DNA of 34,430 nt. It comes from Dehalococcoidales bacterium (GTDB lineage: Bacteria > Chloroflexota > Dehalococcoidia > Dehalococcoidales > GCA-2688105). Under the pieces are notes generated by a model. It was not told the DNA's origin and did not search any database. It saw only the letters and a program-made list of their open reading frames with translations. This document shows positions 1-23,996 of this stretch, piece by piece. The stretch is taken from positions 1-34,430 of the forward strand of contig DAOWJS010000028.1 of NCBI GenBank assembly GCA_030640255.1, in the 5' to 3' direction. Each line of letters begins with the position of its first letter. Position 1 is the first letter of the stretch. A program made the position numbers and the translations under genes.

Positions 1-499
1 CGGCGGTTCCATCCTCAGTAACCGTAATGAGCTTTATTTTAGGCGGTAAAAGGAGGGTGGGGTAAAGCTGGGAGGCAGTGGAGGCGCCTATGAGTAGGGT
101 TACTGAGCATGCTTGGTTCAGCGCTTCCTGGGATAGAATGCATAATGGCGCAATACCAATGCCACCAGCTACCAGTAACAGGTTGTGAGCGTCAGGGTAA
201 ATAGAAAAGCCGTTACCTAGCGGTCCCAGCAGGTCTATTTTATTACCGACTTGGCGTTGAGATAGCCAGCGTGTGCCTTTGCCGACTACCGTGAAGAGGA
301 GAGCTAGTTTATTTTGGTTGGATAGCTGGTGGATACTCAGCGGGCGGCGCAGGAGGCATTCAGAGCCTTCGCCGCAGCGTACCATAACAAATTGTCCCGG
401 ACCTGCTGTTGAGGCTATCGGGGGGGATTCCAGCCAGATAAGATAAACCCCGGGCATAACTTCACTAGTAGAAATAATGGGAGCCACAGCTTGCTTCAA
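1..499 (-). CDS. pyrK: dihydroorotate dehydrogenase electron-transfer subunit PyrK (first ~166 codons; the 3' end runs off the window)
   Basis: Absent from the ORF track because it has no stop in the window. Manual minus-strand translation from TTG 499 (which overlaps the carB stop as TTGA) gives [89 protein letters not shown]. These are PyrK-type FAD/NAD-binding motifs. The position just after carB fits a pyr operon. Confidence 0.75.
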
Positions 500-3400
500 G
501 CTGGCTCCTTTCCCCGGTAGTCGGGCAGGGGTTGAGCGCTATAAATTTGGCTTCCGTTGGCAAGTGCCTCTACCGCAGCTCGAGCCGTATCCAGGGAGGT
601 AAAGCAGGAAACACGCCTCTCGGCAGCCGACCGACGGATTTGGAAACCATCTCTTAGCGGGACACGATCTCCGGTAACGGTATTGACGACGCCGTTTACT
701 GTTCCATCATTAATGATGTCAATAACATTGGGATGCCCCTCGCTCAATTTTTTGCTAATCATTTTTACCGGGAGTCCCGCCGCCTCAATCATAGCTGCTG
801 TGCCTTCGGTGGCATAGAGTTTGTAGCCTATTGAGGCGAACCTTCTGATTATAGGTAGCGCTTCGGGCTTATCTCGGTCAGCAATACTGAAAAGTATGGC
901 ACCTTGAGGCAGTAGCATTAGTCCCGCAGCTAGAAGTGCCTTGGCTAAGGCAGCATCAAAGGTGTAATCAATCCCCATTACCTCTCCGGTGGACTTCATT
1001 TCCGGACCAAGGTAGGTATCAACGCCAAGTAGTTTTGACATAGAGAAAACCGGGGCTTTAATGGCTACCAGTTCTTGCTTGGGCCACAGTCCGGTGTGGT
1101 AGCCCTGCTCCTTGAGGCTTTTACCCAGCATAACCTTGGTGGCCACTTTTACCATAGGTATACCGGTAACCTTGGAGAGAAAGGGGACGGTGCGGCTGGC
1201 CCTGGGGTTAACCTCTAATACATAGACCGAAGGCTCAGAACCGGGAGGTACTGATTCTGGATGAGGCATAATGACGAACTGGATGTTCATCAAGCCTTTA
1301 ATTTTGAGTGCCAGTCCCATCCTGATAGTATAGTCAACAATAGTTTCTACCTCTGGCTCGGTTAGATTTATCCCGGGATAGACGGCCATAGAGTCTCCAC
1401 TGTGGACTCCTGCCCGTTCAATATGCTCCATTATCCCGGGAATGAGAACACTCTCCCCGTCACCTATGGCGTCAACCTCTACCTCTTTTCCTTGCAGGTA
1501 TTTGTCAATAAGCACCGGGTGCTTGGTATCCAGTTCTATGGCTAGCTTCATATAGCGGACTAGCTCGCCGGCATTGTGAACTATTTCCATAGCTCTGCCG
1601 CCGAGGACATAGCTGGGGCGAACCAATACTGGATAACCGATAAGCTGAGCTACCTTGAGGGCTTCATCTACCGAGGTTACCCCGGCTCCCGGTGGTTGAG
1701 GAATGCCCAGCTCGTTGAGGAAGTTCTCAAATCGGCGCCTGTCCTCAGCCAGGTCAATAGCCTCAGCGCTGGAGCCGAGGAGAGGCATCCCGCTGCGAAA
1801 TAGGGGCTCAGCCAGGTTTATCGCCGTCTGACCTCCAAATTGGACTATAGACGGCGAGGGGGCATTGTCCGGTTGCCCGCTTTCATTTTCCAGGATGTCA
1901 CGCAGGCTTTCCTCATCCAGGGGTTCAAAGTAGAGGCGGTCACTGGTATCAAAATCGGTGGACACCGTTTCCGGGTTGGAGTTGACCATTATACTCTTGA
2001 AGCCAGACTCCTGCAGTGCCCAGGAAGAATGAACGCTACAGTAGTCAAATTCAATACCCTGCCCAATGCGGATAGGTCCGCTACCGATGACTATCGCCTT
2101 GTTTCCTTCAAGAGGCTCAGCCTCATTCTCCTGGTCGTAGGTGCTGTAGAAGTAAGGGGTGCCGGCGTCAAACTCAGCAGCACAGGTATCCACCATCTTG
2201 TAAACGGGACGGATTTGCCACTTGTGCCGCAACTCCCTTACCTGCTCGGTGAGTCTATCAGCCAGGGTTCCAATCTGCTCGTCAGAGAAGCCGAGCCGTT
2301 TTGCCCGCCGTAGAAGCTCTGGGGTCAGCGGCTTAGACAGGAGCCTCTTTTCCATATTAACAATGTTCTGGAGCTTATCCATAAACCACAGGTCAATCTT
2401 GGTGTGGTTGGATAGCTCTTGGGCAGTGAGCCCTCTTCTCAGGGCGGCCATTAGCGCCCATAATCTCAGGTCGTTAGGTTCCAGAAGGTAGGCATTGATA
2501 TCTGTTCCCATCTCCCAGGTGCGGTCTTCCCACAGTAGCGACCGGTTGCTAAACTCAAGGGAGCGAATCGCCTTCTGCAGAGCGGCTTCAAAACAGCGGT
2601 CAATAGCCATTACCTCGCCGGTGGCTTTCATCTGGGTGCCGATAACCCGGTCACCGGAGGCAAACTTATCAAACGGCCAGCGAGGAATCTTGACCACCAG
2701 GTAGTCCAGTGCTGGCTCGAAGGCAGCCATGGTTTTCCCGGTTATCTGGTTGGGGATTTCATCCAGCCTTTTGCCGACGGCTATCTTCGCCGCCACGCGG
2801 GCAATGGGATACCCGGTAGCCTTACTGGCTAGGGCGGAGCTTCGGCTGACCCTGGGGTTTACTTCAATCACATAATAATCATTGCTGTTAGGGTCGAGGG
2901 CGAACTGGATATTACAGCCGCCTTCAACTCCCAGGGCACGAATAATCTTGAGGCTGGCTGTCCGCAACATCTGGTGCTCTTTATTAGTCAGAGTCTGGCT
3001 GGGAGCCACCACGATGCTGTCGCCGGTATGAACCCCCATCGGGTCAATATTCTCCATATTGCAAACGGTGATGCAGTTATCGGCCCCGTCGCGCATTATC
3101 TCATACTCAATCTCTTTCCAGCCAATTACCGATTCTTCCAGCAGTATCTGGTGAATGGGACTGGCTGCCAATCCTACGGTTGCCGCATGGTCCAGCTCCT
3201 CCCAGGTATTGGCTACCCCGCCCCCAGTCCCCCCCAGGGTGTAAGCGGGGCGGATTATCAGGGGCAGACCTAAGTCCTTGGCTACCTTGGCGGCTTCTTT
3301 TAAGCTGGTTACGGTGGCGCTCTTCGGCACCGGCTCGCCGATATTGATTAGCATCTGCTTGAATAACTCGCGGTCTTCCGCCATTCTTATGGTTTGTATC

Positions 3401-3750
3401 GGTGTTCCCAGGCTTTTCATATTATATTTGTCTAAAACGCCGGCATCGGCTAAGTCCACCGCTAGATTAAGCCCGGTCTGACCACCGAGGGTGGGCAGTA
3501 GCCCATCGGGACGCTCCCGCTCAATAATGCGGGCGACCATTTCCACGGTGAGCGGCTCAATATAGATAATGTCGGCGATACCCTCATCGGTCATAATGGT
3601 TGCCGGGTTGGAGTTGACCAGCACCGAGGTTACCCCCTCCTCCCGCATCGCCTTGCACGCCTGGGTGCCGGCGTAGTCAAACTCCGCCGCCTGCCCGATA
3701 ACAATCGGCCCCGACCCAATAATTAATACTTTAGATGGTTTCTTGGTCAA
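496..3750 (-). CDS. carB: carbamoyl-phosphate synthase large subunit
   Basis: 1084-aa ORF with duplicated ATP-grasp halves ([21 protein letters not shown] and [19 protein letters not shown]) and an MGS-like C-terminal domain. TTG start at 3750 is preceded by AAGGAG 8 nt upstream. Lies downstream of carA. Confidence 0.97.
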
Positions 3751-4400
3751 GATGTGTGCTCCTTATAAAAGAAATGCGACCAGATGAGAATATCTAATAA
3801 GCGAAGAAGGGAAACGTCATACATATATTCATATTTAGTTGAAATAATCTGCTGTATCTTAGTTAATTCATCTTTGTTTGCATCTATATCTTTTTTTAGT
3901 TCGGAAATACACTTGATAGCCCAATCAGACTCGCTAGTCCATTTCTGGTCTATTATGATGGCTTTGCAGTAATCTATTTCCAATATACTATCAAGAATTG
4001 GTATTACATTTGGTAATTTCTTGTGCAGTATTTTTGTCTTTCTAGCAAGACTCAAATATTTTGTGTCGAATGCTTGTATTAATTCACCAATTTTACCCCA
4101 CGGTATCTTTTCAAAATCGTCAGAGATTTTTGTGTTGTAAGGAATTTTAGAGAGACAGGAGTTTATCTTATTTATTTTTTCAAGGAGCGGTTTAATTACA
4201 AGTGATTCATCATAATAAGGAATTCTAGCACCAAGACTATTACTGGCATCTATAGCCATAAGTATTTGTGCCTTGTTTAAGAAGCTGTTTGTAGGTAGTC
4301 TCATACTGTCATAATATCGGGCTCCGCTTTCCCTGTTCCAGTAATATTCAATTTTCTCAATAGGATTTGAAATCTGGATGTTATTTCTTAGTTTAATCAT
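3747..4400 (-). CDS. hypothetical protein, AT-rich orphan gene (possibly DUF6308-like)
   Basis: 217-aa ORF with a strong SD (AAGGAGGTGA) 5 nt upstream of ATG 4400. Its stop overlaps the carB TTG start (TTGA). By eye it is about one-third G+C, against about half in the flanks. The motifs [17 protein letters not shown] and [11 protein letters not shown] recall my memory of the DUF6308 family; this is not verified. Confidence 0.7.
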
Positions 4401-4420
4401 TACTTCACCTCCTTACCTTC

Positions 4421-4900
4421 ATCTTGTTCTACCTCACCCCCTTTGTCCCCCTCTCCTTCAAAGGAGAGGGGGAGGTTGGGTGTGGAGAGGGGCTTCGCCC
4501 CTCTCAGACTCCCCGTATTAAGTTCTGCCTCACTCGGACTCCCCTTAATCATATCTAGATGTTTCGTCCCTCTCAGGCTCTCCCCACATTCAAGCTTGGG
4601 AGGATTATCCTCTCGGACTCCCCGTATTTTGTTCCGTACCTTTAGGTTCTCCTAAATACTAAGGGTTCAACCCTCTCGGACTCCCCTTATTCAATTTTGT
4701 CTATCTCCCTCCACTCAGGTGGGTTATAGAGAGGTTCAACCTCCCTTTTTAACCATCTCCTTACCCATCAGGAGAGTTTTAGAGAGGCGAAGCCTCTCTT
4801 TTTACATCTTCCCCTTCCCCTTACCCAATCCCCAAGGGGAAGGGGATAAAGGGGATGGGGTTACCACTAAACAGGGGCGAAGCCCCCTAAAACTCCCTGT
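4421..4900. repeat. intergenic hairpin-repeat cluster A (cap, P1, P2, five CTCGGACTCCCC-tailed units, P3 and GGGGATGGGGTTACC)
   Basis: Cap (reverse complement) 4427-4443. P1 palindrome 4447-4472 (CCCCCTCTCCTT..AAGGAGAGGGGG). P2 4485-4505 (GAGAGGGGC-TTC-GCCCCTCTC). Tails end at 4514, 4544, 4585, 4623 and 4686. Hairpins at 4600-4612, 4662-4674, 4731-4743, 4781-4799 and 4874-4886. P3 arms at 4811-4822 and 4834-4845. Track ORFs in this stretch are low-complexity artefacts. Confidence 0.85.
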
Positions 4901-4902
4901 AT

Positions 4903-6000
4903 TCATTTCCCTCCCCTCACCATCTCCAGAAACTTTTCAAAGAGGTAGGTATTGTCCAGGGGGCCGGGGGAGGCTTCGGAGTGGTACTGGATGGAGAAGA
5001 TGGGTAGCTCCTTGTGACGCAAGCCTTCCACCGTACCGTCATTCAGGTTGATATGGCTTACCTCTAGACCATCTTTCAAGGTATCGGGGTCAACGGCGTA
5101 GCCGTGGTTCTGAGCGGTGATATGGATTCGCCCATCACTCAGGTCGCGGACGGGGTGGTTACCGCCGCGATGACCAAACTTCAGCTTGAAGGTCTTGGCA
5201 CCGAATACCCTGCCCAGAATAAGGTGTCCCATACAGATGCCCATTATTGGCTTTTTACCGACAAGTTTCTTAATCGTATCTACTATGTAATCCAGCACTT
5301 CGGGGTTACCCGGACCCGGGGAGAGGAGAATACCGTCGGGCTTCAGGTTCAAGATTTCATCGGCAGTCATGGTGCAGGGCACCGCAGTTACCCGGCAGCC
5401 GTGACCACACATCATGCGCAGTATGCTGTATTTCAAGCCGCAGTCCAGGACGACTATTTTACATGGCGGTGAGGCTGCCTGGCCCGGTTCTGGTTCCCAT
5501 TGATAGGGGGCGTTGGTGGTAACCTGCTTGACGAAATCGGTGGAGCCATAGCCGGGTACTTTCAGCAGTTGCTCCATAGCCTGCTGGGGAGTTTTATCGC
5601 TGGTAATAATGCCCATCATTACCCCGGCCGAGCGGAGTTTGCGGGTGATAGCCCGGGTATCCACGCCACTTATTCCCGGTATGCCATTTTCGACTAGGTA
5701 TTCATGGAGGGTGCCGGTGCTCAGGTAGTGGTTGGGTTGGTAGCACTCCTCCCTGACCACAAAGCCTCTAACCTGGACTTTGTCCGACTCAAAATCCTGC
5801 TCATTTATGCCGTAATTGCCGATAAGGGGGTAGGTGGGAACCACAATCTGTCCGGCGTAGGAGGGGTCGGTTAGCGTTTCCTGATACCCGAACATACTGG
5901 TGTTGAAAACCACCTCACCACAGGCATCAGCCTCAGTCCCAAAGGCATAACCTTCATAAACTGAGCCATCGGCTAAGACTAGTATTGCTTTTTTAGTCAT
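4903..6000 (-). CDS. carA: carbamoyl-phosphate synthase small (glutamine amidotransferase) subunit
   Basis: 365-aa ORF. The N-terminal CPSase small-chain domain begins AILVLADGSVYEGYAFG. Class I GATase motifs are present (PIMGICMGHLIL, then HRGGNHPV and NHGYAV). Confidence 0.97.
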   Translation of the reverse strand: MTKKAILVLADGSVYEGYAFGTEADACGEVVFNTSMFGYQETLTDPSYAGQIVVPTYPLIGNYGINEQDFESDKVQVRGFVVREECYQPNHYLSTGTLHEYLVENGIPGISGVDTRAITRKLRSAGVMMGIITSDKTPQQAMEQLLKVPGYGSTDFVKQVTTNAPYQWEPEPGQAASPPCKIVVLDCGLKYSILRMMCGHGCRVTAVPCTMTADEILNLKPDGILLSPGPGNPEVLDYIVDTIKKLVGKKPIMGICMGHLILGRVFGAKTFKLKFGHRGGNHPVRDLSDGRIHITAQNHGYAVDPDTLKDGLEVSHINLNDGTVEGLRHKELPIFSIQYHSEASPGPLDNTYLFEKFLEMVRGGK

Positions 6001-6007
6001 ATTAGGC

Positions 6008-6333
6008 TTTATCTACCTCACCCCCTTAGGTTTTTATTAGGTAACCCTATCCCCTTTAGTCACTTGATTTGGTGACCCTCCCCCTTTTGTCCCCCTCCCT
6101 TGTTAAGGGAGGGGGAAATTGGTTGTGTGAGAGGGGCGGTGCCCCTCTCTGACTCCCCTTCGAGCTTCCCCGTTAACGGGGGAAGATTTTCTCTGAAGAG
6201 GGGCTTTGCCCCTCTTAAACCCCCCTTCACTATTTTCTTCTTCAAAGGAGAGGGGAGGTATGGGTTTCGGGGGAGCTTCGCCCCTCCAAGCTTCCCCTCA
6301 GAAAATAAATTCCTTATAGAGGCTTTGCCTCTC
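6008..6333. repeat. intergenic hairpin-repeat cluster B (same family and same order as cluster A)
   Basis: Cap (rc) 6008-6028. GGTAACCCTATCCCCTTTAG 6040-6059. P1 6091-6115. P2 6129-6149 with tail TGACTCCCC 6150-6158. Further GC hairpins at 6165-6185, 6196-6216, 6269-6287 (degenerate) and 6318-6332. The stretch 6091-6158 aligns almost base for base with 4447-4514. Confidence 0.85.
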
Positions 6334-6335
6334 CT

Positions 6336-7669
6336 TTAATATTTCCCCTTCGCCTCAACTTTAATTGAGTCATCCTTATAAACTAGCTTTCCCCGGGCTA
6401 TGGTTGCCATTACCATCCCTTTAAGCACTGAGCCAGCCCAAGGGGTATTCTTGCCCTTTGAGGCAAAGGTCTTGGTATCTACCACCCATTCCCTCCCAGG
6501 GTCAAAGATGGTAATATCGGCTGAAGCACCAATAGCTAGTGTGCCCAGTTTTTCATATTTATCACCAATAATCTTTGATGGTTCATAAGTGAGCTTGGCG
6601 ATGAGGGTAGTCAGAGTTAGCTGTCCATCGTGCACTAAACTCATCAGGCTGCCCAAGGCGGTCTCAAATCCACTGATGCCAAAGGGGGCCAGGGCAAACT
6701 CACACCGTTTATCGGCCTCAGTGTGAGGGGCGTGGTCGGTAGCAATAATGTCAATTACATTCTCTTTGAGCCCTTGAATTAATGCTTGGACGTCTCTTCC
6801 GGTTCTTAGCGGTGGATTTACCTTAGCGTTGGTATCATAGCCTATTACCCTATCCTCGGTGAGGGTCAGGTGGTGTGGGGTGACCTCGGCAGTAACCCGG
6901 ATGCCTTTTTCTTTGGCACGACGAATAAGCTCAACCGAGCCTTCAGTGGTAACATGGGCAATGTGTAGCCGACCTCCGGTGAGTTGAGCCAGAGCCAGGT
7001 CACGGGCAACTATAATATCTTCAGCGGCATTAGGTATGCCACGAAGCCCTAATCTGGCTGAGGTTACGCCCTCATTCATCACTCCGCCCTCGGTGAGGGC
7101 AGTATCCTCACAGTGGTCAGTAATCGGCAGGTCCAGGTCGCGGCTACAGTCCAGTGCCTGGCGCATAAGGCGTGAATTCAGAGCTGGTTCACCATCATCA
7201 CTAAAGGCAATCACCCCGGCTGAAGCCAGTTCGTCTAGTTCAGCTAGCTCCGCTCCCTTTCTTTCTTTAGAAATACAGCCTATAGGCAGAACGCGAACCA
7301 CGCCTTCGGTGGCTGCCGTTGATTTGACATAATTTATGGCAGCTTGATTGTCCAGGGGTGGGTTGGTATTAGCCATACAGCAGATAGTGGTAAAGCCGCC
7401 TCTGGCTGCGGCTTGAGTGCCGGTGGCAATGGTTTCCTTCTCTTCAAACCCCGGCTGCCTCAGGTGACAGTGAAGGTCAACAAACCCGGGGCAGACTATC
7501 AGTCCCTGGGCATTAAGGACTTCATACTCGGGGTGGGGTGGGGTTATTTCCCCTCTGCCCAGCCATGAGATTTTGCCGTTGCTGATGAGCAAACTACCGA
7601 TTTCATCGAGCCCCTGGCTGGGGTCGATTATGCGACCGCCATGGATAAGCAAGGAAACTGCTTTGATAT

Positions 7670-7673
<4 letters not shown>
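6336..7673 (-). CDS. pyrC: dihydroorotase
   Basis: 445-aa ORF with the amidohydrolase metal motif DLHCHLRQPG and the later ATDHAPH. Its start overlaps the pyrB stop as ATGA. Confidence 0.95.
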
Positions 7674-9765
<2,092 letters not shown>

Positions 9766-9794
9766 TATCCTCGCTTTTTAATTCCTAAACAATA

Positions 9795-9823
9795 ATTATA
9801 CCACTTTAATCTGATTATGGCAA
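9795..9823 (-). promoter_or_regulatory. candidate sigma70-type promoter of the pyr operon
   Basis: The minus strand reads TTGCCA (9818-9823), a 17-nt spacer, then TATAAT (9795-9800). It lies upstream of the PyrR-binding leader. Confidence 0.55.
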
Positions 9824-9880
9824 CATTTTCAAGGCGGGTTATTTATCCAAGGTAGTTAAACAATCTTTCGCGAAGTTCCC

Positions 9881-9909
9881 TTTACCAATGAGATATTAGG
9901 GGTTATAAT
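9881..9909 (+). promoter_or_regulatory. candidate divergent promoter for the 9955 gene
   Basis: TTTACC (9881-9886), a 17-nt spacer, then TATAAT (9904-9909). The RBS GGAGGTG lies at 9944-9950, before TTG 9955. Confidence 0.45.
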
Positions 9910-9954
9910 AAACCGGTATGTTCAGATTTTCCAAACTGTAGCCGGAGGTGTAGC

Positions 9955-10977
9955 TTGGTTGCCTTATATGTAACTTCTGTGGAGAAGGCGGTGGGTAAGA
10001 CTGCGGTTGGTGCTGGTCTGGGTAAATATTTACTGGATAATGGTAAAAAAGTAGGTTTCTTAAAACCGCTCATCGCTGCTACGGCGAGTCTATCACCAGA
10101 AGGTGTTGACAGCGATGCGGTATTTATGAAGCATATTTTGGCTTTGGAGGAGCCGGTGGACGCTCTTTGTCCGGTTATTAGCGATAAGGATAATCTGACC
10201 AGTAGTATTAAGGAAGCCTATGCCAGGGTTTCTCAGGGTAAAGATGTAGTTATTATTGAGGGTATGGGTAAGCCGAGCCCGGCTTATTTCAAGGTAGTAG
10301 AAGCCCTGGATGCCAGGGTGATTATTGTGGAAGGCTATTCTGATAGGTTGCCTACGGCAAGGCTTATTACTAGCGGTGAGGAATGGGGGGAATATTTACT
10401 GGGGGCAGTAGTGAATAAGGTGCCCAGAAGTCAATTAGAACATGTTTCTGGTGAGGTGTCTAAGGCAGGGGTAAGTATTTTAGGGGTGTTTCCTGAAGAT
10501 AGAGCCCTATTTACGCTAACCGTGGGTGAACTGGCTGAGCATATTCATGGAGAAATATTGAACTCGGCTGAGAAATCAGGCGAACTGGTGGAAAACATTA
10601 TGCTTGGCGCCATGACCGTTGACCCGGGTCCCGAATACTTTGGTCGCCAAGCTGATAAGGCGGTAATAGTCAGGGGTGAACGCCCTGATATGCAACTGGC
10701 AGCTCTGGAAACCTCAACCAGGTGTCTGGTTATCACTGGCGATACGGCACCAATCCCGACTGTCCTCTATAACGCCGAAAGTACGAAGGTTCCCATTATT
10801 TTAACCAAGGGGAATGTTGTGGACACGGTGGCGGATATTGAGGATGCCCTGGGCAAGGTGAGATTTAACCAGGAGAGTAAGTTACCCAGGCTTAGTGAAA
10901 TTATGGTGCAGTACTTCAACTTTCAGGCGGTATATCAAGGGCTGGGCTTAGCTAATCAGAGGAGGCCAATTCACTAG
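9955..10977 (+). CDS. Pta N-terminal-like protein (P-loop AAA_26/DTBS-like domain plus DRTGG domain)
   Basis: 340-aa ORF. The N-terminus VTSVEKAVGKTAVGAGLG resembles the dethiobiotin-synthetase-like P-loop. The C-terminal CLVITGDTAPIPTVL...VPIILT resembles the DRTGG domain found N-terminal in phosphotransacetylases. Confidence 0.75.
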   Translation: MVALYVTSVEKAVGKTAVGAGLGKYLLDNGKKVGFLKPLIAATASLSPEGVDSDAVFMKHILALEEPVDALCPVISDKDNLTSSIKEAYARVSQGKDVVIIEGMGKPSPAYFKVVEALDARVIIVEGYSDRLPTARLITSGEEWGEYLLGAVVNKVPRSQLEHVSGEVSKAGVSILGVFPEDRALFTLTVGELAEHIHGEILNSAEKSGELVENIMLGAMTVDPGPEYFGRQADKAVIVRGERPDMQLAALETSTRCLVITGDTAPIPTVLYNAESTKVPIILTKGNVVDTVADIEDALGKVRFNQESKLPRLSEIMVQYFNFQAVYQGLGLANQRRPIH

Positions 10978-14538: not shown

Positions 14539-14623
14539 TTGAAGGGGCGAAGCCCCTTCAAAACCCATCCTTCCCCCTCTCCTTTGAAGGAGAGGGGGAT
14601 AAAGGGGGTGAGGTAGATAAAAC
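14539..14623 (+). repeat. hairpin-repeat unit C (P2 - P1 - cap)
   Basis: TTGAAGGGGC-GAA-GCCCCTTCAA at 14539-14561. CCCCCTCTCCTT-TG-AAGGAGAGGGGG at 14573-14598. ATAAAGGGGGTGAGGTAGATAAAAC at 14599-14623. It is collinear with 19641-19727 and with the reverse complement of 4427-4514. Confidence 0.85.
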
Positions 14624-14675: not shown

Positions 14676-16388
14676 ATGCCTATCAGAGTTTTAGACCCCA
14701 AGGTAGTATCCCGGATTGCCGCCGGGGAGGTGGTGGAGCGGCCGGCCTCGGTGGTGAAGGAGCTGGTGGAGAACTCGCTGGATGCCGGCTCATCCCAGAT
14801 TTCCATTGAGGTCAGGGGTGGTGGGGTAAGCTTAATTAGGGTGATGGATAACGGGGTGGGCATTCCCCCGGGGGAGGTAGAGCTTGCCTTTGCCCGTTAT
14901 GCTACCAGCAAGGTAGGCAGCTTAGAGGATTTGGAGTCTATTTCCAGCCTCGGCTTTCGGGGGGAGGCGTTACCCAGTATCGCCACCGTGGCTGAGGTAG
15001 ACATGGTTACCTGTGCTGCCGGCGAGACGGCAGGCACTTACCTTAGCCTTAAGGACGGCGTTGCCGTTGGTCGGGGAAGCCGGGGACGCTCCCCGGGGAC
15101 GACGATTACGGTGCGGGGTCTATTCCGCAAGCTGCCGGCAAGGTTAAAGTTCCTTAAGTCGCCAGCTACGGAAAATAGCCATATTGCCCAGGTGATAAGT
15201 CAGTATGCCCTTGCCTTCCCCGAGGTCAAATTTACCTTGTTTATTGAGGGCAGGATGGCGCTAACCACGGCAGGTAGTGGTCGGCTAATAGATAGTGTGA
15301 CTCAAGTTCATGGCTTAGAGGTAGCCCAGAATATGCTGGAGATTAAGAATAGGGGGTGGCAGGGCGGGGCAGCAATGGCATCACCCCTGGTAACCGGTAT
15401 GGTAGGCTCGCCGGCAATAAGCCGTTCCCATCGGGGTTACCTCAGCCTCTTTGTCAATCGCCGCTGGATAAACAGCCGACTGGTGGCTCGGGCAGTGGAG
15501 GAGGCTTATCACGGGCTTTTGATGCTGGGGAAACATCCGGTGGCTATCATCAATATTTCACTACCTCCTGAGGAGGTGGATATTAATATTCACCCCACCA
15601 AAATAGAGGTGAAGTTCAGTAACGAGCACATAGTTTTTACCGCTGTCCAGAGGGCAGTCCGACAGGTTTTAATTGAACTGGTGCCGGTGCCTAAGATTGA
15701 GGAGGTAGCTACCACCTATACCTCACCATCACCGCCACGACAAGTATCGTGGCTCTCAGCCGTAGGTGGTGATAGCCTTACTGGTGCGGCGCCGGTAGCT
15801 TCTCAGACACCTACCGTTTCACTGCCGGCACTACGAATACTGGGTCAGCTCTTGAGTAGCTATATTATAGCCGAGGGTCCCGATGGGTTGTATCTTATCG
15901 ACCAGCATGCCGCCCATGAGCGCGTCCTTTTTGAAAAGATAAAATTGCAGCGGTCACGGCAAGAGGTAGAAGTTCAAGGGCTACTTGAACCGGTAACCTT
16001 TGAGGTTAATCCCCAGCAGGAGGAAGTTCTAAAATCACACTATGAAAATCTAGCCGAATTCGGTTTCACCATTGAGCCTTTTGGTGATAGAACCTATCTC
16101 GTCAGGGCGGTGCCAGTTCTGCTTTATGACCAAGATTGGGTGGGAATGCTGAGGGAGTTACTGGATTCCTTATCTGGGGAGGATAAGGATGACTGGGGGG
16201 AAAAGGTAGCTATCTCCATCGCCTGCCACAGTGCGGTAAGGGCTGGGCAGACATTAACTAATGACGAAATGCGCCAACTTATACGGCAACTGGAGCAGGT
16301 AGCCCTTCCCCATACCTGTCCCCATGGCCGACCAACCATGGTTCGTCTCAGCTCGGGACAGCTGAAAAAGGAGTTTGGTAGAAGCTAA
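14676..16388 (+). CDS. mutL: DNA mismatch repair protein MutL
   Basis: 570-aa ORF. The GHKL ATPase N-terminus reads IAAGEVVERPASVVKELVENSLDAG and DNGVGI. The C-terminal dimerisation/endonuclease region includes DQHAAHERVLFE. Confidence 0.95.
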   Translation: MPIRVLDPKVVSRIAAGEVVERPASVVKELVENSLDAGSSQISIEVRGGGVSLIRVMDNGVGIPPGEVELAFARYATSKVGSLEDLESISSLGFRGEALPSIATVAEVDMVTCAAGETAGTYLSLKDGVAVGRGSRGRSPGTTITVRGLFRKLPARLKFLKSPATENSHIAQVISQYALAFPEVKFTLFIEGRMALTTAGSGRLIDSVTQVHGLEVAQNMLEIKNRGWQGGAAMASPLVTGMVGSPAISRSHRGYLSLFVNRRWINSRLVARAVEEAYHGLLMLGKHPVAIINISLPPEEVDINIHPTKIEVKFSNEHIVFTAVQRAVRQVLIELVPVPKIEEVATTYTSPSPPRQVSWLSAVGGDSLTGAAPVASQTPTVSLPALRILGQLLSSYIIAEGPDGLYLIDQHAAHERVLFEKIKLQRSRQEVEVQGLLEPVTFEVNPQQEEVLKSHYENLAEFGFTIEPFGDRTYLVRAVPVLLYDQDWVGMLRELLDSLSGEDKDDWGEKVAISIACHSAVRAGQTLTNDEMRQLIRQLEQVALPHTCPHGRPTMVRLSSGQLKKEFGRS

Positions 16389-16389
16389 T

Positions 16390-16932
16390 TTATTCAGTAG
16401 GGCTAACTAGTTGCTCGTGTAAGGGGTAGTTAGCCCCCAGCCCCCATTGGCTTGGCGGCCAGATTGATAACCAGACTTTACCAATTATGTTTTGGCGGGG
16501 TACTGTCCAGCCGTTGTGGGAATCATTACTATTATTGCGATTATCGCCAAGGACAAAGTAGTTGTTGTCGGGAATCTCTCTCCGGGGTAGGGTATAAGCG
16601 GGAGGGTCTTTAATATAGGGTTCGTCCAGTGGTGAGTCATTAACATATACTACCCCCGTTTTCACCTCTACCGTGTCGCCGGGCAAGGCAATGATACGCT
16701 TGATATAGTCGGCTTGATGGCTGCCGACGGGGCGGAATACAATCACGTCACCCCTTTCCGGTCCGTGGAAGTGATAAACGGTTTTGATTATTAATAGTCG
16801 TTGTTCCTCCTCAAAGTTAGGCTCCATACTAGAGCCGACTACGATAAAAGTCTGGAACGTGATTTGTAACAGAATGAAGATTACGATAGTCAGGGCGATG
16901 GTACCTAAAATCTCACGGAAAAAGGTTCTCAT
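16390..16932 (-). CDS. lepB: signal peptidase I
   Basis: 180-aa ORF with an N-terminal TM helix and the motifs GSSMEPN, GDVIVF, YIKRIIALPGDTV and VLGDNRNNSNDS. Confidence 0.93.
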   Translation of the reverse strand: MRTFFREILGTIALTIVIFILLQITFQTFIVVGSSMEPNFEEEQRLLIIKTVYHFHGPERGDVIVFRPVGSHQADYIKRIIALPGDTVEVKTGVVYVNDSPLDEPYIKDPPAYTLPRREIPDNNYFVLGDNRNNSNDSHNGWTVPRQNIIGKVWLSIWPPSQWGLGANYPLHEQLVSPTE

Positions 16933-17355
16933 TTATCAAAGCTACTTTCTTTCTAGGCTTGGCATCAAATTATAACCTATCTGGCTCTATTCTTCCAGTT
17001 TGGCTTTCTGATTGGCGTAAGCATTTTATATAGAAGATTTGCAGGATTAAATGTAGTAATATGTATGTGCTAACTGAAGCGTCGTTTTTCCGTTATAATA
17101 GTAGAGTGTACTGGAGGCTTTACCTTTTCGGAAAGTTCAAAGGGGTATCCGAGGATTGATTAATGTGTTGTTTTGTGTTAAAATTATTCCCAATTTTGTT
17201 ATCGTGTTAGAAGAAGGCAAGCTTAGAAAGAGAACCAGGAAGGTAAAGTGAGACAGATGCTCTTTGTATTATTTAGAAAGGCAGGTGATGTGATGGAGTA
17301 GGTAGTTAGGCATAGGACTGATGGGAGATACTCGTAAAAAAGGCAGGAGGTAACT

Positions 17356-17697
17356 ATGCGCAGGATATTTAAGGTATTAGGAGTGATGGCTATTATTCCT
17401 TTATTATGCGTGGCAATAGTAGCCTGTGTCCCTACTATCCCTCTAACTCTGGAGGTAACTTCACCCACTGAGGGAGCAGAGCTTACCGTGACTCCGGTAA
17501 CGGTAGGGGGTAGTGTGTCTGATGTTGAGGCCGAGGTGACAATCAATGAGGTGGCAGTAACTGTGGCTGAGGATGGTATATTCTCTGGCGAGGTTGAGCT
17601 TACTGAAGGCGAAAACACTATTACAGTTGTCGCCACACTGGGTGAGGAAATAGTAACCCAGACAGTAACTGTTACCTATGCCCTGCCGGCTGAATAG
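17356..17697 (+). CDS. small lipoprotein with a bacterial Ig-like fold
   Basis: 113-aa ORF. The RBS GGAGGT lies 5 nt upstream. The signal peptide has the lipobox IVAC. The rest is a Thr/Val/Glu-rich beta-strand pattern. A strong terminator follows the gene. Confidence 0.7.
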   Translation: MRRIFKVLGVMAIIPLLCVAIVACVPTIPLTLEVTSPTEGAELTVTPVTVGGSVSDVEAEVTINEVAVTVAEDGIFSGEVELTEGENTITVVATLGEEIVTQTVTVTYALPAE

Positions 17698-22466: not shown

Positions 22467-22894
22467 TTAGCAACCTATCCCCCTGACCCCCTTCCCTTAA
22501 TAAAAGATTGTTAAACAACCCCTCACCCTTTATCCCTCTCCCCTTATGAAGGGGAGAGGGAAGAGAAATTCTCAAAGGGGCTTCGCCCCTTTTAATCCCC
22601 TTTGCTAAAAACTCTTAATAAGAGGGGGAGTGTAGGTAAGAGAGGGGCTTCGCCCCTCTCTAAAATCTCTTCTTTGAAATATATAGGAAGTCTAAGCGGG
22701 GCTAACGCCCCTCTGTTTTACTCCTTCCCCCTCTCCTTTAAAGGAGGGTCAAAGGGAGGCGAAGCCTCCCTTATATAAGCTCCCCTTCCCCTTATCAAGG
22801 GGAAGGGGATAAAGTCCTTGCCTGCTTTGGCAAGGATAAAGGGGATAGGGTTACCTAATAGAAATCTAAGGGGGTGAGGTTAATAAACAATCTC
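22467..22894. repeat. intergenic hairpin-repeat cluster E (mosaic of all module types, with cap-like modules facing outward at both ends)
   Basis: Left end: rc-type modules at 22467-22491 and 22505-22535. P3 at 22534-22560. P2 copies at 22574-22592, 22639-22661, 22698-22711 and 22752-22772. Degenerate P1 at 22727-22748. P3 at 22782-22808. Inserted hairpin at 22815-22836. GATAAAGGGGATAGGGTTACC at 22835-22855. Cap at 22866-22894. Confidence 0.85.
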
Positions 22895-22906
22895 AATATT
22901 TGACCT

Positions 22907-22935
22907 TTGACATACCATTACCTGTCACCTATAAT
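22907..22935 (+). promoter_or_regulatory. consensus sigma70-type promoter abutting the cluster E cap
   Basis: Perfect TTGACA (22907-22912), a 17-nt spacer, then TATAAT (22930-22935). A second TATAAT lies at 22945-22950. The RBS GGAGGGTGA lies at 22957-22965, before TTG 22969. Confidence 0.6.
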
Positions 22936-22968
22936 TAATCCAATTATAATCGCCTGGAGGGTGAAGTC

Positions 22969-23199
22969 TTGGCTCAGGAAAACGAACCTAATGTGGTCGG
23001 TCAGGAACCAACGCTGGATATTGAACAGATTAAAAGGCATTTGGACATGTTAGACCAGCGTTTAGATAACATCGACTCGGTGGTTACCGCTGTTGTTGAA
23101 CGAGTAATGAAACAACCTATTGCTCTTAATGTAACCTGTCCCTACTGTGGTAAGAACATAGAGATTGCTATTATAGGTAGTCATAAGCCAACAAGATAG
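22969..23199 (+). CDS. small hypothetical protein with a C-terminal CxxC
   Basis: 76-aa ORF with a TTG start, a good RBS and a promoter upstream. It has a helical N-terminal part and the motif CPYCGKNIEI near the C-terminus. I recognise no family. Confidence 0.5.
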   Translation: MAQENEPNVVGQEPTLDIEQIKRHLDMLDQRLDNIDSVVTAVVERVMKQPIALNVTCPYCGKNIEIAIIGSHKPTR

Positions 23200-23336
23200 T
23201 GGGTATATGAAACTTAGGGGTTAGGTAAGTATCTGTTTAGTTCCTCACCTAGTTAGATAGGGGGGTGACTGGAATGTAAATTTTCACTTCGTCTAAGAAT
23301 TTAAATAAGAGTTTGGAAGGATAGAGGGGAATAAAT

Positions 23337-23996
23337 TTGGAGATAGTTACAACAATCAATCGAGCCAAATATGATGCCTTTAAATGGCGATACGAACTTA
23401 GCATACCGAGGAAATTAGTTTTGGCATTGGGTGTGGCTTGTCTCGTCGGGCTTATGGCTCAAGTTAGATTTTATCTTCCGTGGAGCCCGGTGCCAATAAC
23501 TGGTCAAACCTTTGCTGCGCTCCTTGCTGGCGTGCTTCTCGGCCGGTGGTGGGGAGGCACAAGTCTGGCTATCTATGCCGGGCTCGGTGCTGCGGGACTT
23601 CCCTGGTTTGCTAGCTTGAACAGCGGCCTGGGTTACCTTGCCGGTCCCACCGGGGGATATATTATCGGCTTCATCTTAGCCGCTTTGTTTTTGGGTTATT
23701 TTACTGATAAGTATATTAGGTCAAGAAGCTTTTTTAGCATGCTTGGGCTTATGCTCTTTGCCAATTTTATCCTGATTCATATACCTGGTCTGATACAACT
23801 GCACTTCTGGCTAAGCCTGGTTAAAGGGGAAGCTGTCGCCCTCTCCCAGCTCCTAATGATGGGGACCATTCCTTTCATAGCTGGTGATGTAACCAAGGCT
23901 ATTGCCGCAGCAGCAATAACCCGGGGAGTAGCTCCTAAACAAGCCTACAATGGAGAAGTGGACAAAGATAAATGGGTGAATTGGCGCATCCCTTAA
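23337..23996 (+). CDS. bioY: biotin transporter BioY (ECF S component)
   Basis: 219-aa polytopic membrane protein with BioY signatures: PVPITGQTFAALLAGVLLG, GPTGGYIIGF and PFIAGDVTKA. Confidence 0.85.
   Translation: MEIVTTINRAKYDAFKWRYELSIPRKLVLALGVACLVGLMAQVRFYLPWSPVPITGQTFAALLAGVLLGRWWGGTSLAIYAGLGAAGLPWFASLNSGLGYLAGPTGGYIIGFILAALFLGYFTDKYIRSRSFFSMLGLMLFANFILIHIPGLIQLHFWLSLVKGEAVALSQLLMMGTIPFIAGDVTKAIAAAAITRGVAPKQAYNGEVDKDKWVNWRIP

Follow-up and report, generated by a model that had tools for sequence, protein, structure and literature searches.

The locus raises the question of why an AT-rich gene lies between carA and carB, the genes of the small and large subunits of carbamoyl-phosphate synthase, and what its product may do. 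The features needed to answer it are listed below, with positions in the window (the whole stretch of DNA analysed, 34,430 nucleotides).

The cargo gene and the surrounding pyr operon

496..3750, minus strand: carB, carbamoyl-phosphate synthase large subunit, 1084 aa, TTG start (ORF call)
3747..3764, minus strand: carB leader, formed by the last codons of the cargo gene (sequence read)
3747..4400, minus strand: DUF6308 cargo gene, 217 aa (ORF call, Pfam PF19827, dN/dS, AlphaFold2)
4414-4405, minus strand: Shine-Dalgarno (SD) sequence of the cargo gene, AAGGAGGTGA, inside the exchangeable segment (sequence read)
3742..4426: exchangeable cassette, comprising the ORF and its SD (no blastn homology to the closest relative)
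4401..4902: spacer from carA to the cargo gene, 502 bp, with a hairpin repeat cluster
4903..6000, minus strand: carA, small subunit, 365 aa
6336-7673, minus strand: pyrC
7670-9091, minus strand: pyrB fused to a PyrI C-terminal domain
9078-9668, minus strand: pyrR-like phosphoribosyltransferase gene
9667..9762, minus strand: putative PyrR-binding leader (Rfam RF00515)
9703-9675, minus strand: terminator-like hairpin in the pyrR leader (terminator scan)
9823-9795, minus strand: promoter-like site upstream of pyrR (promoter scan)

The sequence-only reading of this DNA had pointed to a 217-aa ORF of low G+C wedged between carA and carB, and the GC content by gene agrees with this (0.327 in the cargo gene, with a GC3 of 0.32, vs 0.533 in carA, 0.534 in carB and 0.514 in pyrC), the cargo gene being the GC minimum of the 34-kb window. 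The gene has its own SD, as had been noticed, which lies 4 nt before the ATG (4400-4398). Its 3′ end reads TAT AAG GAG CAC ACA TCT TGA, where AAGGAG (3764-3759), followed after 8 nt by the TTG start (3750-3748), makes up the carB leader, while the stop codon TGA (3749-3747) overlaps this start as TTGA. The earlier description of last codons spanning the carB SD and of a stop on the carB start is therefore accurate; the terminal KEHTS does span the carB SD, but it is part of a carB leader common to loci with other cargos. An AGGAG-N7-9-start leader precedes carB also where the cargo is TIR, AbiJ or another gene. The stop/start overlap together with an SD within the upstream ORF is the sequence geometry of a translationally coupled gene, so the layout proposed for coupling to carB is present, and it recurs with every other cargo type found at the carA-carB slot.

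The operon is conventional in content. The equivalent genes of carB contain Pfam CPSase domains, and the carB protein is 83-95% identical to those of relatives, while the first gene of the operon carries a Pribosyltran domain. The pyrR leader matches the full-length RF00515 model with 49.2 bits (E 1e-4), which is 4.8 below the gathering score of 54, and on these sequence features the operon is probably under PyrR control. Between carA and carB the terminator scan gave no minus-strand terminator, and the promoter scan for a cargo-specific promoter gave just a 9/12 promoter-like match, which is at chance level. The spacer contains four copies of the repeat GGGGAGTCYGAGAGG (0.01 expected) and its repeat cluster ends in the cap AAGGGGGTGAGGTAGA (4428-4443), which faces the cargo gene as had been described. 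A called 50-aa ORF (4400-4552) consists of this repeat sequence, and the repeats belong to a gene-facing family that is also present before carA and one other gene. In relatives the carA-side spacer holds DUF559, GIY-YIG, HicAB or small ORFs.

The carA-carB junction in relatives

Presence or absence of cargo, which the sequence-only reading had proposed to survey, was scored at 56 related carA-carB junctions, all of them loci from metagenome assemblies. The slot is variable, with 24 junctions empty and 32 occupied. The statement that carA and carB are normally adjacent holds as well, the gap in the 24 empty ones not exceeding about 250 bp and being mostly 0-10 bp. The occupying cargos lie on the same strand, are low in GC (0.33-0.45) and mutually unrelated, and nearly all of them end between -9 and +33 nt from the KVLIIGSG motif of carB. 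They comprise a CAP12/Pycsar-type TIR gene equivalent to PDC-S35 (six loci), AbiJ_NTD4 (PDC-S32), SLFN_AlbA_2 (Schlafen-AlbA_2; PDC-S50, three loci), the Hypoth_Ymh HEPN gene (Aga_HEPN), and further PDC-S18, PDC-S64, HicAB, VapB, DUF559 and GIY-YIG genes. The PDC families are themselves candidate defence families.

A defence or toxin-antitoxin family recognised by PADLOC or Pfam (PDC-S35, S32, S18, S50, S64, Aga_HEPN or HicAB) occurs in 15 of the 32 occupied loci, a raw count within the slot alone. At least six cargo families have no annotation, the unannotated cargos measuring 338/285, 201, 374, 292, 313 and 307 aa, and occupants that do not resemble defence genes are found too, such as lipoprotein-like ORFs, PEP carboxylase and transmembrane proteins. 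Gene content is polymorphic between close relatives with conserved flanks, as expected of a hotspot; two loci (L034 and L037) with flanks 98-99% identical contain different cargos. With 32 of 56 junctions holding unrelated, low-GC, same-strand genes that include defence types, the carA-carB junction functions as a hotspot for defence genes within an operon that is probably under PyrR control. Nothing specific to such a hotspot at carA/carB came up in a literature search.

Exchange and inheritance of the DUF6308 gene

The closest relative, L112, has a carA protein 94% identical to that of the window and flanks of about 91% DNA identity over 6 kb and 3.6 kb, and it carries an AbiJ_NTD4/PDC-S32 gene (E 9e-50) where the window has DUF6308. 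The blastn blocks shared with L112 cover 4781-10946 (91.4%), 4427-4628 (95.1%) and 146-3741 (91.0%) and delimit the exchangeable cassette, whose 3′ boundary abuts the carB leader without a repeat. Three further lineages also have DUF6308 at this junction, and the carB proteins of all four are 79-88% identical; the other 52 of the 56 junctions have other genes or nothing in its place. The four junction copies have a GC of 0.33-0.36 against 0.50-0.60 in their flanks, and encode proteins of the same length that are 42-85% identical.

Simple vertical inheritance was considered and agrees with the identity ranks over the four loci. However, the ratio of DUF6308 dN to that of carA rises from 0.9 against L001 (0.088 for DUF6308, 0.095 for carA) to 3.3 against L009 (0.475 and 0.143), and the lack of DUF6308 in L112 contradicts it as well. 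An integron cassette was likewise rejected, as there is no integrase within 10 kb and no 3′ attC-like site. Sliding identity against L112 and L001 gave no sign of an imported recombination tract around the cassette; the only deviation, a dip or rise that is small and not significant, falls within the initial 150-300 nt of carB. The DUF6308 gene is very probably a horizontally exchanged accessory cargo in a variable slot. The swap within nearly identical flanks supports horizontal acquisition more strongly than had been proposed, and the copies are not a conserved, vertically inherited part of the operon with normal composition. The conserved flanks (carA with the repeat cap, and carB with its leader) would probably serve as homology arms for such swaps.

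The cargo gene is under purifying selection, its dN/dS of 0.11 (against L001, dS 0.79) being similar to those of carA and carB and not near 1. A spurious ORF in an AT-rich spacer, which the low GC and the lack of a named function would allow, is refuted by this value and by an above-threshold Pfam match; the confident AlphaFold model and the same-length homologues also speak against it, and its probability is negligible.

The DUF6308 gene may otherwise be a selfish or addictive element without host benefit, possibly spreading in a homing-like manner with DUF559 or GIY-YIG endonuclease genes, which directly follow carA in seven loci (L001, L002, L034, L035, L037, L049 and L118). Wedged upstream of an essential coupled gene, it would be hard to delete, since clean loss is costly when its stop overlaps the carB start; toxin-antitoxin genes (HicAB and VapB) occupy the same slot, and DUF6308 is found inside other essential operons as well. 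However, the window copy is accompanied by repeats only, with no endonuclease or partner gene, no nuclease or toxin motif is recognisable in DUF6308, and the absence of a detectable imported tract around the cassette also weighs against it. That the neighbouring DUF559 genes spread recently was rejected, as they have diverged about as much as their flanks. This explanation is regarded as improbable.

The DUF6308 family and its genomic contexts

The protein matches Pfam PF19827 (DUF6308) at residues 69-209 (E 9.3e-13, 48.9 bits vs a cut-off of 27.3), confirming the resemblance proposed in the sequence-only reading. It contains the family signature TKILHKK(R/L)PxxIPILDS and the C-terminal motif RxLDILIW, and all 150 collected relatives match the same model. 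The label of orphan gene does not hold, as clustering at 50% identity gives 444 clusters for the family; among 1.84 billion clusters, it is nevertheless rare and patchy. The members at carA-carB form a low-GC branch within Chloroflexota, whereas the named members found in this analysis are located on Rhodococcus (Actinomycetota) plasmids. A contig scan with the pattern TKILHKKR, which cannot find the TKILHKKL of the window protein itself, gave DUF6308 matches that are all distant (at most 33% identical).

The neighbourhoods of homologues, another check suggested at the outset, link the family to both defence and housekeeping genes. DUF6308 genes are located two genes downstream of a DruE helicase (E 4e-185), two genes downstream of PDC-M54A (E 7e-153) and near CBASS genes on a Rhodococcus plasmid, and in another context DUF6308 is fused to a ResIII helicase and a Type I S domain. 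The order sdhA-sdhB-DUF6308-sucC-sucD occurs in two Binataceae MAGs (Binatus), and other members adjoin or are fused with MoaC or lie near nadE and thiC. No family of the PADLOC-DB v2 HMMs matched the proteins P0001, P0005, P0008, P0016 and P0025, searches of NCBIfam and PHROGs with the DUF6308 protein gave no match, and no DUF6308 was found in INPHARED phage records or IMG/VR viral contigs. A full-text literature search for 'DUF6308' found no paper.

These contexts bear on the idea that DUF6308 has a lineage-specific function in pyrimidine or arginine metabolism, perhaps regulating carbamoyl-phosphate synthase or acting as its accessory subunit. In four lineages it has the same place and orientation and the same coupling layout with carB, which would fit such a function, but the closest relative and most junctions lack the gene, family members are mostly found outside pyr operons, and the predicted fold points to DNA; a metabolic role is accordingly very improbable.

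Predicted fold and conserved residues

Structure prediction with AlphaFold2 and a Foldseek search, as the sequence-only reading had suggested, gave confident models, with a pLDDT of 94.6 and a pTM of 0.90 for the window protein (model 1) and a pLDDT of 91.2 for an independent member of 26% identity (P0026; model 2). Against the PDB, seven of the best 25 matches of model 1 are HhH glycosylases, with the top TM scores (TM 0.22-0.33, E at least 1.7), while the best 36 matches of model 2 are all HhH glycosylases (E 0.18-1.1, probability up to 0.54, TM at most 0.33), among them MutY, EndoIII, Ogg2 (probability 0.54), OGG1, MagIII and AlkA. This predominance of HhH glycosylases is striking, but taken singly none of the matches of either model reaches significance (best E 0.18). 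A Foldseek search of the viral BFVD library gave noise, as did PDB sequence searches with a single protein (phmmer) or the profile (hmmsearch), where no glycosylase appeared, and hhalign of the family profile with E. coli endonuclease III (Nth) gave a probability of 0.06. Weak Pfam matches among the 150 members include OGG-like PF21790 in three (best E 0.0011) and HHH in two (best E 0.0023).

The conserved core comprises a hairpin-helix with Lys123, a Pro-rich loop and the invariant Asp137, together with Arg200, Asp203 and Trp207. P134 and D137 are invariant in 150 of 150 members, K123 is nearly so, and P130 is invariant or nearly so. In model 1, D137 directly precedes helix 138-149, and a Gly/Pro-rich loop followed by a conserved catalytic aspartate where the next helix begins is the layout of HhH-GPD proteins. 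The hairpin of the window protein is LSLARKTK and does not contain the canonical GxG of the helix-hairpin-helix motif hxxhxGhGxxxA, while many relatives have a hairpin of the type GVGLAKATK. As modelled, the DUF6308 protein is predicted to be all-alpha, and its fold may resemble the two-domain all-alpha fold of HhH-superfamily DNA glycosylases.

Such a fold would also suit an accessory DNA-repair or genome-maintenance protein of glycosylase-like type that has no part in immunity and hitch-hikes on strongly expressed housekeeping operons. The strong purifying selection on the cargo gene, the housekeeping neighbours in other phyla (sdhB/sucC in Binataceae, the MoaC fusion, nadE and thiC) and the missing PADLOC match are in line with this, as are the glycosylase matches. 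It is considered unlikely, since bona fide defence-type genes replace DUF6308 in near-identical backgrounds, the family is rare and patchy, the GC of the cargo is persistently foreign, and DUF6308 has DruE, PDC-M54A and CBASS neighbours and an RM-like fusion.

Proposed role of the DUF6308 gene

The best reading overall, and one that is modestly favoured, is that of a stand-alone DNA-targeting defence effector in an exchangeable operon slot. In a Dehalococcoidia lineage, the DUF6308 gene would be a single-gene cargo placed downstream of carA and ahead of the carB ribosome-binding site; read-through from the pyrR-pyrBI-pyrC-carA-carB operon would transcribe it, and translation would start from its own SD. 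As the cargo stop lies on the carB start, carB translation would in turn be coupled to that of the cargo. Judged from the sequence, co-transcription and translational coupling with carA/carB are expected, and the cargo gene may depend on this essential operon or modulate its expression, as had been proposed. The protein may recognise and excise an unusual (phage-modified) base, as Dag and Brig1 do. A role of DUF6308 in defence is somewhat better supported than its absence, while the glycosylase-like mechanism is put forward tentatively and may well prove wrong.

A more far-reaching reading, offered as speculation with a low chance of being right, takes the slot to be a nucleotide-pool-sensing expression platform, DUF6308 a new family of antiviral HhH glycosylases, and the unannotated cargos new defence genes. 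Promoterless and placed behind a PyrR attenuator, the cargos would be expressed more strongly once phage replication depletes UMP/UTP, which would provide a built-in infection signal for TIR, HEPN, Schlafen-like, AbiJ and DUF6308 effectors, and cassettes whose stop is fused to the essential carB start would be hard to lose.

To our knowledge, there is almost no experimental phage biology in Dehalococcoidia. The locus provides a first functional lead for the uncharacterised DUF6308, in the form of a HhH-glycosylase-like core, defence neighbours and a position in a defence slot. It also reveals a compact, precisely bounded hotspot in an essential Dehalococcoidia operon, where single-gene effectors are swapped between near-identical strains, and which may serve as a natural discovery filter for defence genes. 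It further raises the idea that metabolic operons may give defence genes both regulation, through a pyrimidine-responsive attenuator, and retention, through the carB start.

Comparison with known systems

With housekeeping HhH-GPD glycosylases, the DUF6308 protein shares the lysine-containing hairpin-helix, the Pro-rich loop and the aspartate at the N-terminus of the next helix. It differs from EndoIII, MutY, Ogg1, Ogg2, MagIII and AlkA in that the TM scores are only 0.2-0.33 (E at least 0.18), and the window protein has no Fe-S motif, an extra N-terminal beta-hairpin and a degenerate GxG hairpin.

Dag1-17 are divergent HhH glycosylases encoded by single-gene antiphage cassettes of Vibrio integrons; their substrates are 7-deazaguanines, and in Dag1 the residues K118, D184 and W188 are essential, while D132A weakens the protein (bioRxiv 10.1101/2025.10.29.685425). 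The spacings of 14 and 4 between the Dag1 active-site residues K118 and D132 and between D184 and W188 equal those of K123/D137 and D203/W207 in DUF6308, a comparison by residue numbering only. Both are encoded by single-gene cassettes within a variable array of co-oriented genes in which defence genes abound, and both have a HhH-glycosylase-like fold, predicted in the case of DUF6308, that sequence searches miss; the DUF6308 slot differs in having no integron integrase or attC and in belonging to another host phylum. Brig1 is an antiphage DNA glycosylase of the UDG superfamily (PMC11078745). The proposed logic of one protein excising a phage-specific modified base would be the same, but Brig1 belongs to the UDG and not the HhH superfamily, and no sequence or structural relation to DUF6308 was found.

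Core-genome defence hotspots of E. coli and P. aeruginosa and sedentary chromosomal integrons combine conserved flanks with variable, defence-rich cargo. The carA-carB slot shares with known hotspots the conserved core flanks and a low-GC, defence-enriched cargo that differs between close strains. Unlike them, it is marked by no integrase, tRNA or attC-like site, it lies inside an essential biosynthetic operon, and its cargos are mostly single, promoterless and co-oriented genes fused to the start region of the essential gene that follows.

The DUF6308 gene in the pyr operon

The operon comprises, in order, a pyrR-like gene, pyrB fused to a PyrI domain, pyrC, carA, the DUF6308 ORF and carB, and the closest named carA proteins (81–83% identical) belong to Dehalococcoidia or Dehalococcoidales MAGs of the Chloroflexota. 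Its relevant features are:

9823–9795, minus: promoter-like site (11/12 match) upstream of the pyrR-like gene
9703–9675, minus: terminator-like hairpin upstream of the pyrR-like gene
9667–9762, minus: full-length match to the PyrR-binding RNA (49.2 bits, E 1e-4)
4903–6000, minus: carA, upstream of the ORF
4414–4405, minus: strong SD of the ORF itself, AAGGAGGTGA
3747–4400, minus: DUF6308 ORF (217 aa), between carA and carB
496–3750, minus: carB, downstream of the ORF

The RNA match lies 4.8 bits below the Rfam gathering score of 54, and the region 9667–9762 is probably a PyrR-binding attenuator. A promoter and terminator scan of the carA–ORF–carB stretch returned no minus-strand terminator and no convincing promoter in between. 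The promoter-like site, the hairpin and the PyrR RNA match, together with this lack of separating signals, suggest that carA, the ORF and carB are co-transcribed and under PyrR control. Aspartate carbamoyltransferase and the PyrI C-terminal (regulatory zinc) domain form one 473-aa protein here (7670–9091, minus), while the PyrB of some relatives (e.g. locus L009) has 324 aa and lacks the PyrI C-terminal domain.

The sequence-only reading had described an AT-rich 217-aa ORF with its own strong SD and a tail built from the carB ribosome-binding region, and each of these features was recovered. The ORF has the lowest GC anywhere in the window (0.327, with GC3 of 0.32, against 0.51–0.53 in carA, carB and pyrC, i.e. 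about one-third against about half). Two more stretches, at 16800–17399 (0.385) and 22800–23399 (0.397), dip below the background GC of about 0.50. The final codons of the ORF are TAT AAG GAG CAC ACA TCT TGA, in which AAGGAG (3764–3759) stands 8 nt before the carB TTG start (3750–3748). Start and stop overlap in the sequence TTGA, and the two genes would be translationally coupled. The likeness to DUF6308 proposed in the sequence-only reading was confirmed: the protein matches PF19827 at E 9.3e-13, which exceeds the curated threshold. The DUF6308 ORF is a real gene under selection: instead of a dN/dS near 1, as expected without selection, comparison with the copy of locus L001 (85% identical) gave 0.11 (dN 0.088, dS 0.79), nearly equal to the values of carA (0.09), carB (0.08) and pyrC (0.10).

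Repeats around the junction

The 502-bp spacer downstream of carA is a hairpin-repeat cluster, whose terminal motif AAGGGGGTGAGGTAGA faces the ORF as previously noticed. Exact copies of this 16-mer, each at the end of a hairpin-repeat element, are located at:

4428–4443, minus: upstream of the DUF6308 gene
6012–6027, minus: upstream of carA
14602–14617, plus: upstream of the ORF at 14676

These copies lie 12–60 nt upstream of the gene starts. The motif is also present in loci L001, L009, L037 and L112, and precedes cargos in relatives; the element looks like a lineage-wide, gene-facing repeat with an SD-like sequence. The public annotation calls a 50-aa ORF (4400–4552, minus) with a stop codon that overlaps the ATG of DUF6308. 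This ORF is made entirely of repeat sequence (..LRGAKPL..EGEGDKGGEV..) and probably not a genuine gene; the false N-terminal extensions of proteins P0002 and P0007 stem from the same repeat. The pyrC–carA spacer (6001–6335) holds a second cluster of these repeats, at the place where an 86-aa ORF is called in L112.

Cargo genes at the carA–carB junction

A carA-alignment scan of metagenomes and two extra look-ups gave 56 distinct junctions with both genes visible. In 24 of them, carA and carB are no more than about 250 bp apart, mostly 0–10 bp; the other 32 have a gap of 0.5–4 kb, usually of low GC. The carB-adjacent gene is on the operon strand in all occupied loci examined, and in nearly all occupied loci the cargo ends at −9 to +33 nt from the conserved carB motif KVLIIGSG, so the carB start can only overlap the cargo or adjoin it directly. 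A leader of the form AGGAG-N7–9-start precedes carB regardless of the cargo (AAGGAGCATAAATCTTGACC is common to one DUF6308 locus and one TIR locus), thus the KEHTS tail of DUF6308 is read-through carB-leader sequence. Cargo identities were assigned by local clustering, Pfam and PADLOC.

Cargo found between carA and carB
CAP12/Pycsar-type TIR family (PDC-S35), six loci
AbiJ_NTD4 (PDC-S32)
PDC-S18, with a weakly Shedu-like N-terminus
Schlafen AlbA_2/PDC-S50, three loci
Hypoth_Ymh HEPN (Aga_HEPN/PD-Lambda-3_B)
PDC-S64
HicA/HicB and VapB
DUF559 and GIY-YIG small endonucleases, directly after carA
Several unannotated proteins
A few not defence-like: lipoprotein-like ORFs, PEP carboxylase, small membrane proteins

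A recognised defence or toxin–antitoxin family is present in 15 of the 32 occupied loci and DUF6308 in four; on these counts, the junction of this Dehalococcoidia group appears to behave as a single-gene defence hotspot. Five further cargos gave no significant match in Pfam or PADLOC (L034 6641–7657, L072 5363–6220, L035 1657–2262, L118 5177–6055 and L122 4988–5929), and two others gave none beyond a marginal PD-T7-5 match (L062 6098–7222) and a weak Mrr_cat match (L043 7585–8508). Because of their location in the slot, these seven are candidate new defence genes. The small GIY-YIG or DUF559 (Vsr-like) genes of L001 (5193–5480), L002 (1073–1426), L034, L035, L037, L049 and L118 lie directly after carA in most cases; in L049 a lipoprotein-like ORF comes in between. 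They are combined with differing downstream cargos, and may act as homing-type elements or drive the exchange of cassettes.

Exchange of the DUF6308 gene

Three other lineages, L001, L002 and L009, have close homologues (42–85% identity) at this junction, each with a different small gene before DUF6308 (GIY-YIG, DUF559 or a 53-aa ORF). The horizontal acquisition proposed in the sequence-only reading is supported by the closest relative found, L112 (GCA_964499445.1; carA 94% and carB 95% identical at the protein level, dS about 0.25), which contains a 294-aa AbiJ_NTD4 protein (PADLOC PDC-S32, E 9e-50) in place of DUF6308. The two DNAs are about 91% identical over 6 kb upstream and 3.6 kb downstream and 95% across the repeat cap, and the sole homology gap, window 3742–4426, corresponds to the ORF and its SD. 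Likewise, the cargos of L034 and L037 differ although their flanks are 98–99% identical. The divergence of DUF6308 from L001 is on par with that of neighbouring genes, its dN against L009 and L002 is 3–4 times that of carA, and all four junction copies keep a GC of 0.33–0.36 with flank GC3 of up to 0.8. Simple descent at the slot does not fit the dN relative to carA, the GC or the L112 swap; the divergence pattern, the GC and the swap fit old alleles exchanged or kept as polymorphism. An imported tract in the cassette flanks could not be shown. The evidence thus supports the DUF6308 gene as horizontally exchanged cargo embedded in an essential operon.

The DUF6308 family in other genomes

An exhaustive profile search of 1.84 billion representatives found 444 clusters at E of at most 1e-3. 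The family was not found in phage records or IMG/VR contigs, has no PHROG or PADLOC match, and is mentioned in none of the papers covered by a full-text search. Its neighbourhoods include defence-type or mobile-element settings, among them DruE, PDC-M54A and CBASS genes, as well as housekeeping contexts. DUF6308 lies two genes downstream of PDC-M54A (E 7e-153), is convergent with an MZB/Hrq1-type helicase gene, is fused to a ResIII helicase and a Type I specificity domain, and occurs in an integrase-bearing soil element. In L031 (326–6984), a 156-aa ORF separates a DruE-type helicase gene (E 4e-185 to DruE1) from the downstream DUF6308 gene, whose 327-aa product has a C-terminal extension containing Cys; no further Druantia gene was called from rpsI to the contig end, and the locus may be a Druantia-like variant using DUF6308. 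On Rhodococcus plasmids, DUF6308 stands behind a hypothetical gene of ~118 aa, once near CBASS genes and recombinases. It overlaps this gene in L115 (5414–6423) and lies 14 nt downstream of it in L116 (5390–6393), which suggests a two-gene module in Actinomycetota. Among the housekeeping contexts, DUF6308 adjoins or is fused to MoaC, and in Candidatus Binatus (L022, 3464–8696) it is packed tightly inside sdhA-sdhB-DUF6308-sucC-sucD, a second case of the family within an operon of core metabolism. In L025, a Binataceae MAG, unannotated ORFs of similar size follow the same order.

Predicted fold and comparison with antiphage glycosylases

The AlphaFold2 model of the window protein is confident (pLDDT 94.6, pTM 0.90) and shows eleven helices and, at the N-terminus, a short beta-hairpin. 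All 150 members compared share P134 and D137; Y30, D31, K123, L125, H126, K128, R129, P130, L132 and R200 are nearly invariant, and the 28 closest members all have W207. The core G-h-[AG]-x-x-TKILHKKRPxLIPILDS consists of a hairpin, a Lys-bearing helix, a Pro-rich loop and an Asp directly before the next helix, the same layout as in HhH-GPD glycosylases. Foldseek against PDB gave no significant match, but the weak matches form a consistent pattern: HhH glycosylases account for 7 of the top 25 for the window model, with the best TM scores (0.22–0.33), and for all 36 top matches (E 0.18–1.1) of a second, independently modelled member of 26% identity (pLDDT 91.2), including EndoIII, MutY, Ogg2 (prob 0.54), OGG1, MagIII and AlkA. 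A few members also have weak Pfam matches to an OGG-like family and to HHH, whereas none of the sequence-level tests (PDB searches; profile against E. coli EndoIII) succeeded. A relationship to HhH glycosylases is likely but unproven. We infer the defence role and the enzymatic mechanism, and regard DUF6308, with its glycosylase-like core, as a candidate for a new family of DNA-targeting defence proteins.

A parallel from a 2025 preprint is Dag1–17, very divergent HhH glycosylases forming single-gene antiphage cassettes in Vibrio integrons, which cut 7-deazaguanine-modified phage DNA; Dag1 requires K118, D184 and W188, and is weakened by D132A (bioRxiv 10.1101/2025.10.29.685425). The spacings within the Dag1 pairs K118/D132 and D184/W188 (14 and 4) equal those of K123/D137 and D203/W207 in DUF6308, a lead matched by residue numbering only. 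Brig1 follows the same defence logic in a different fold (PMC11078745).
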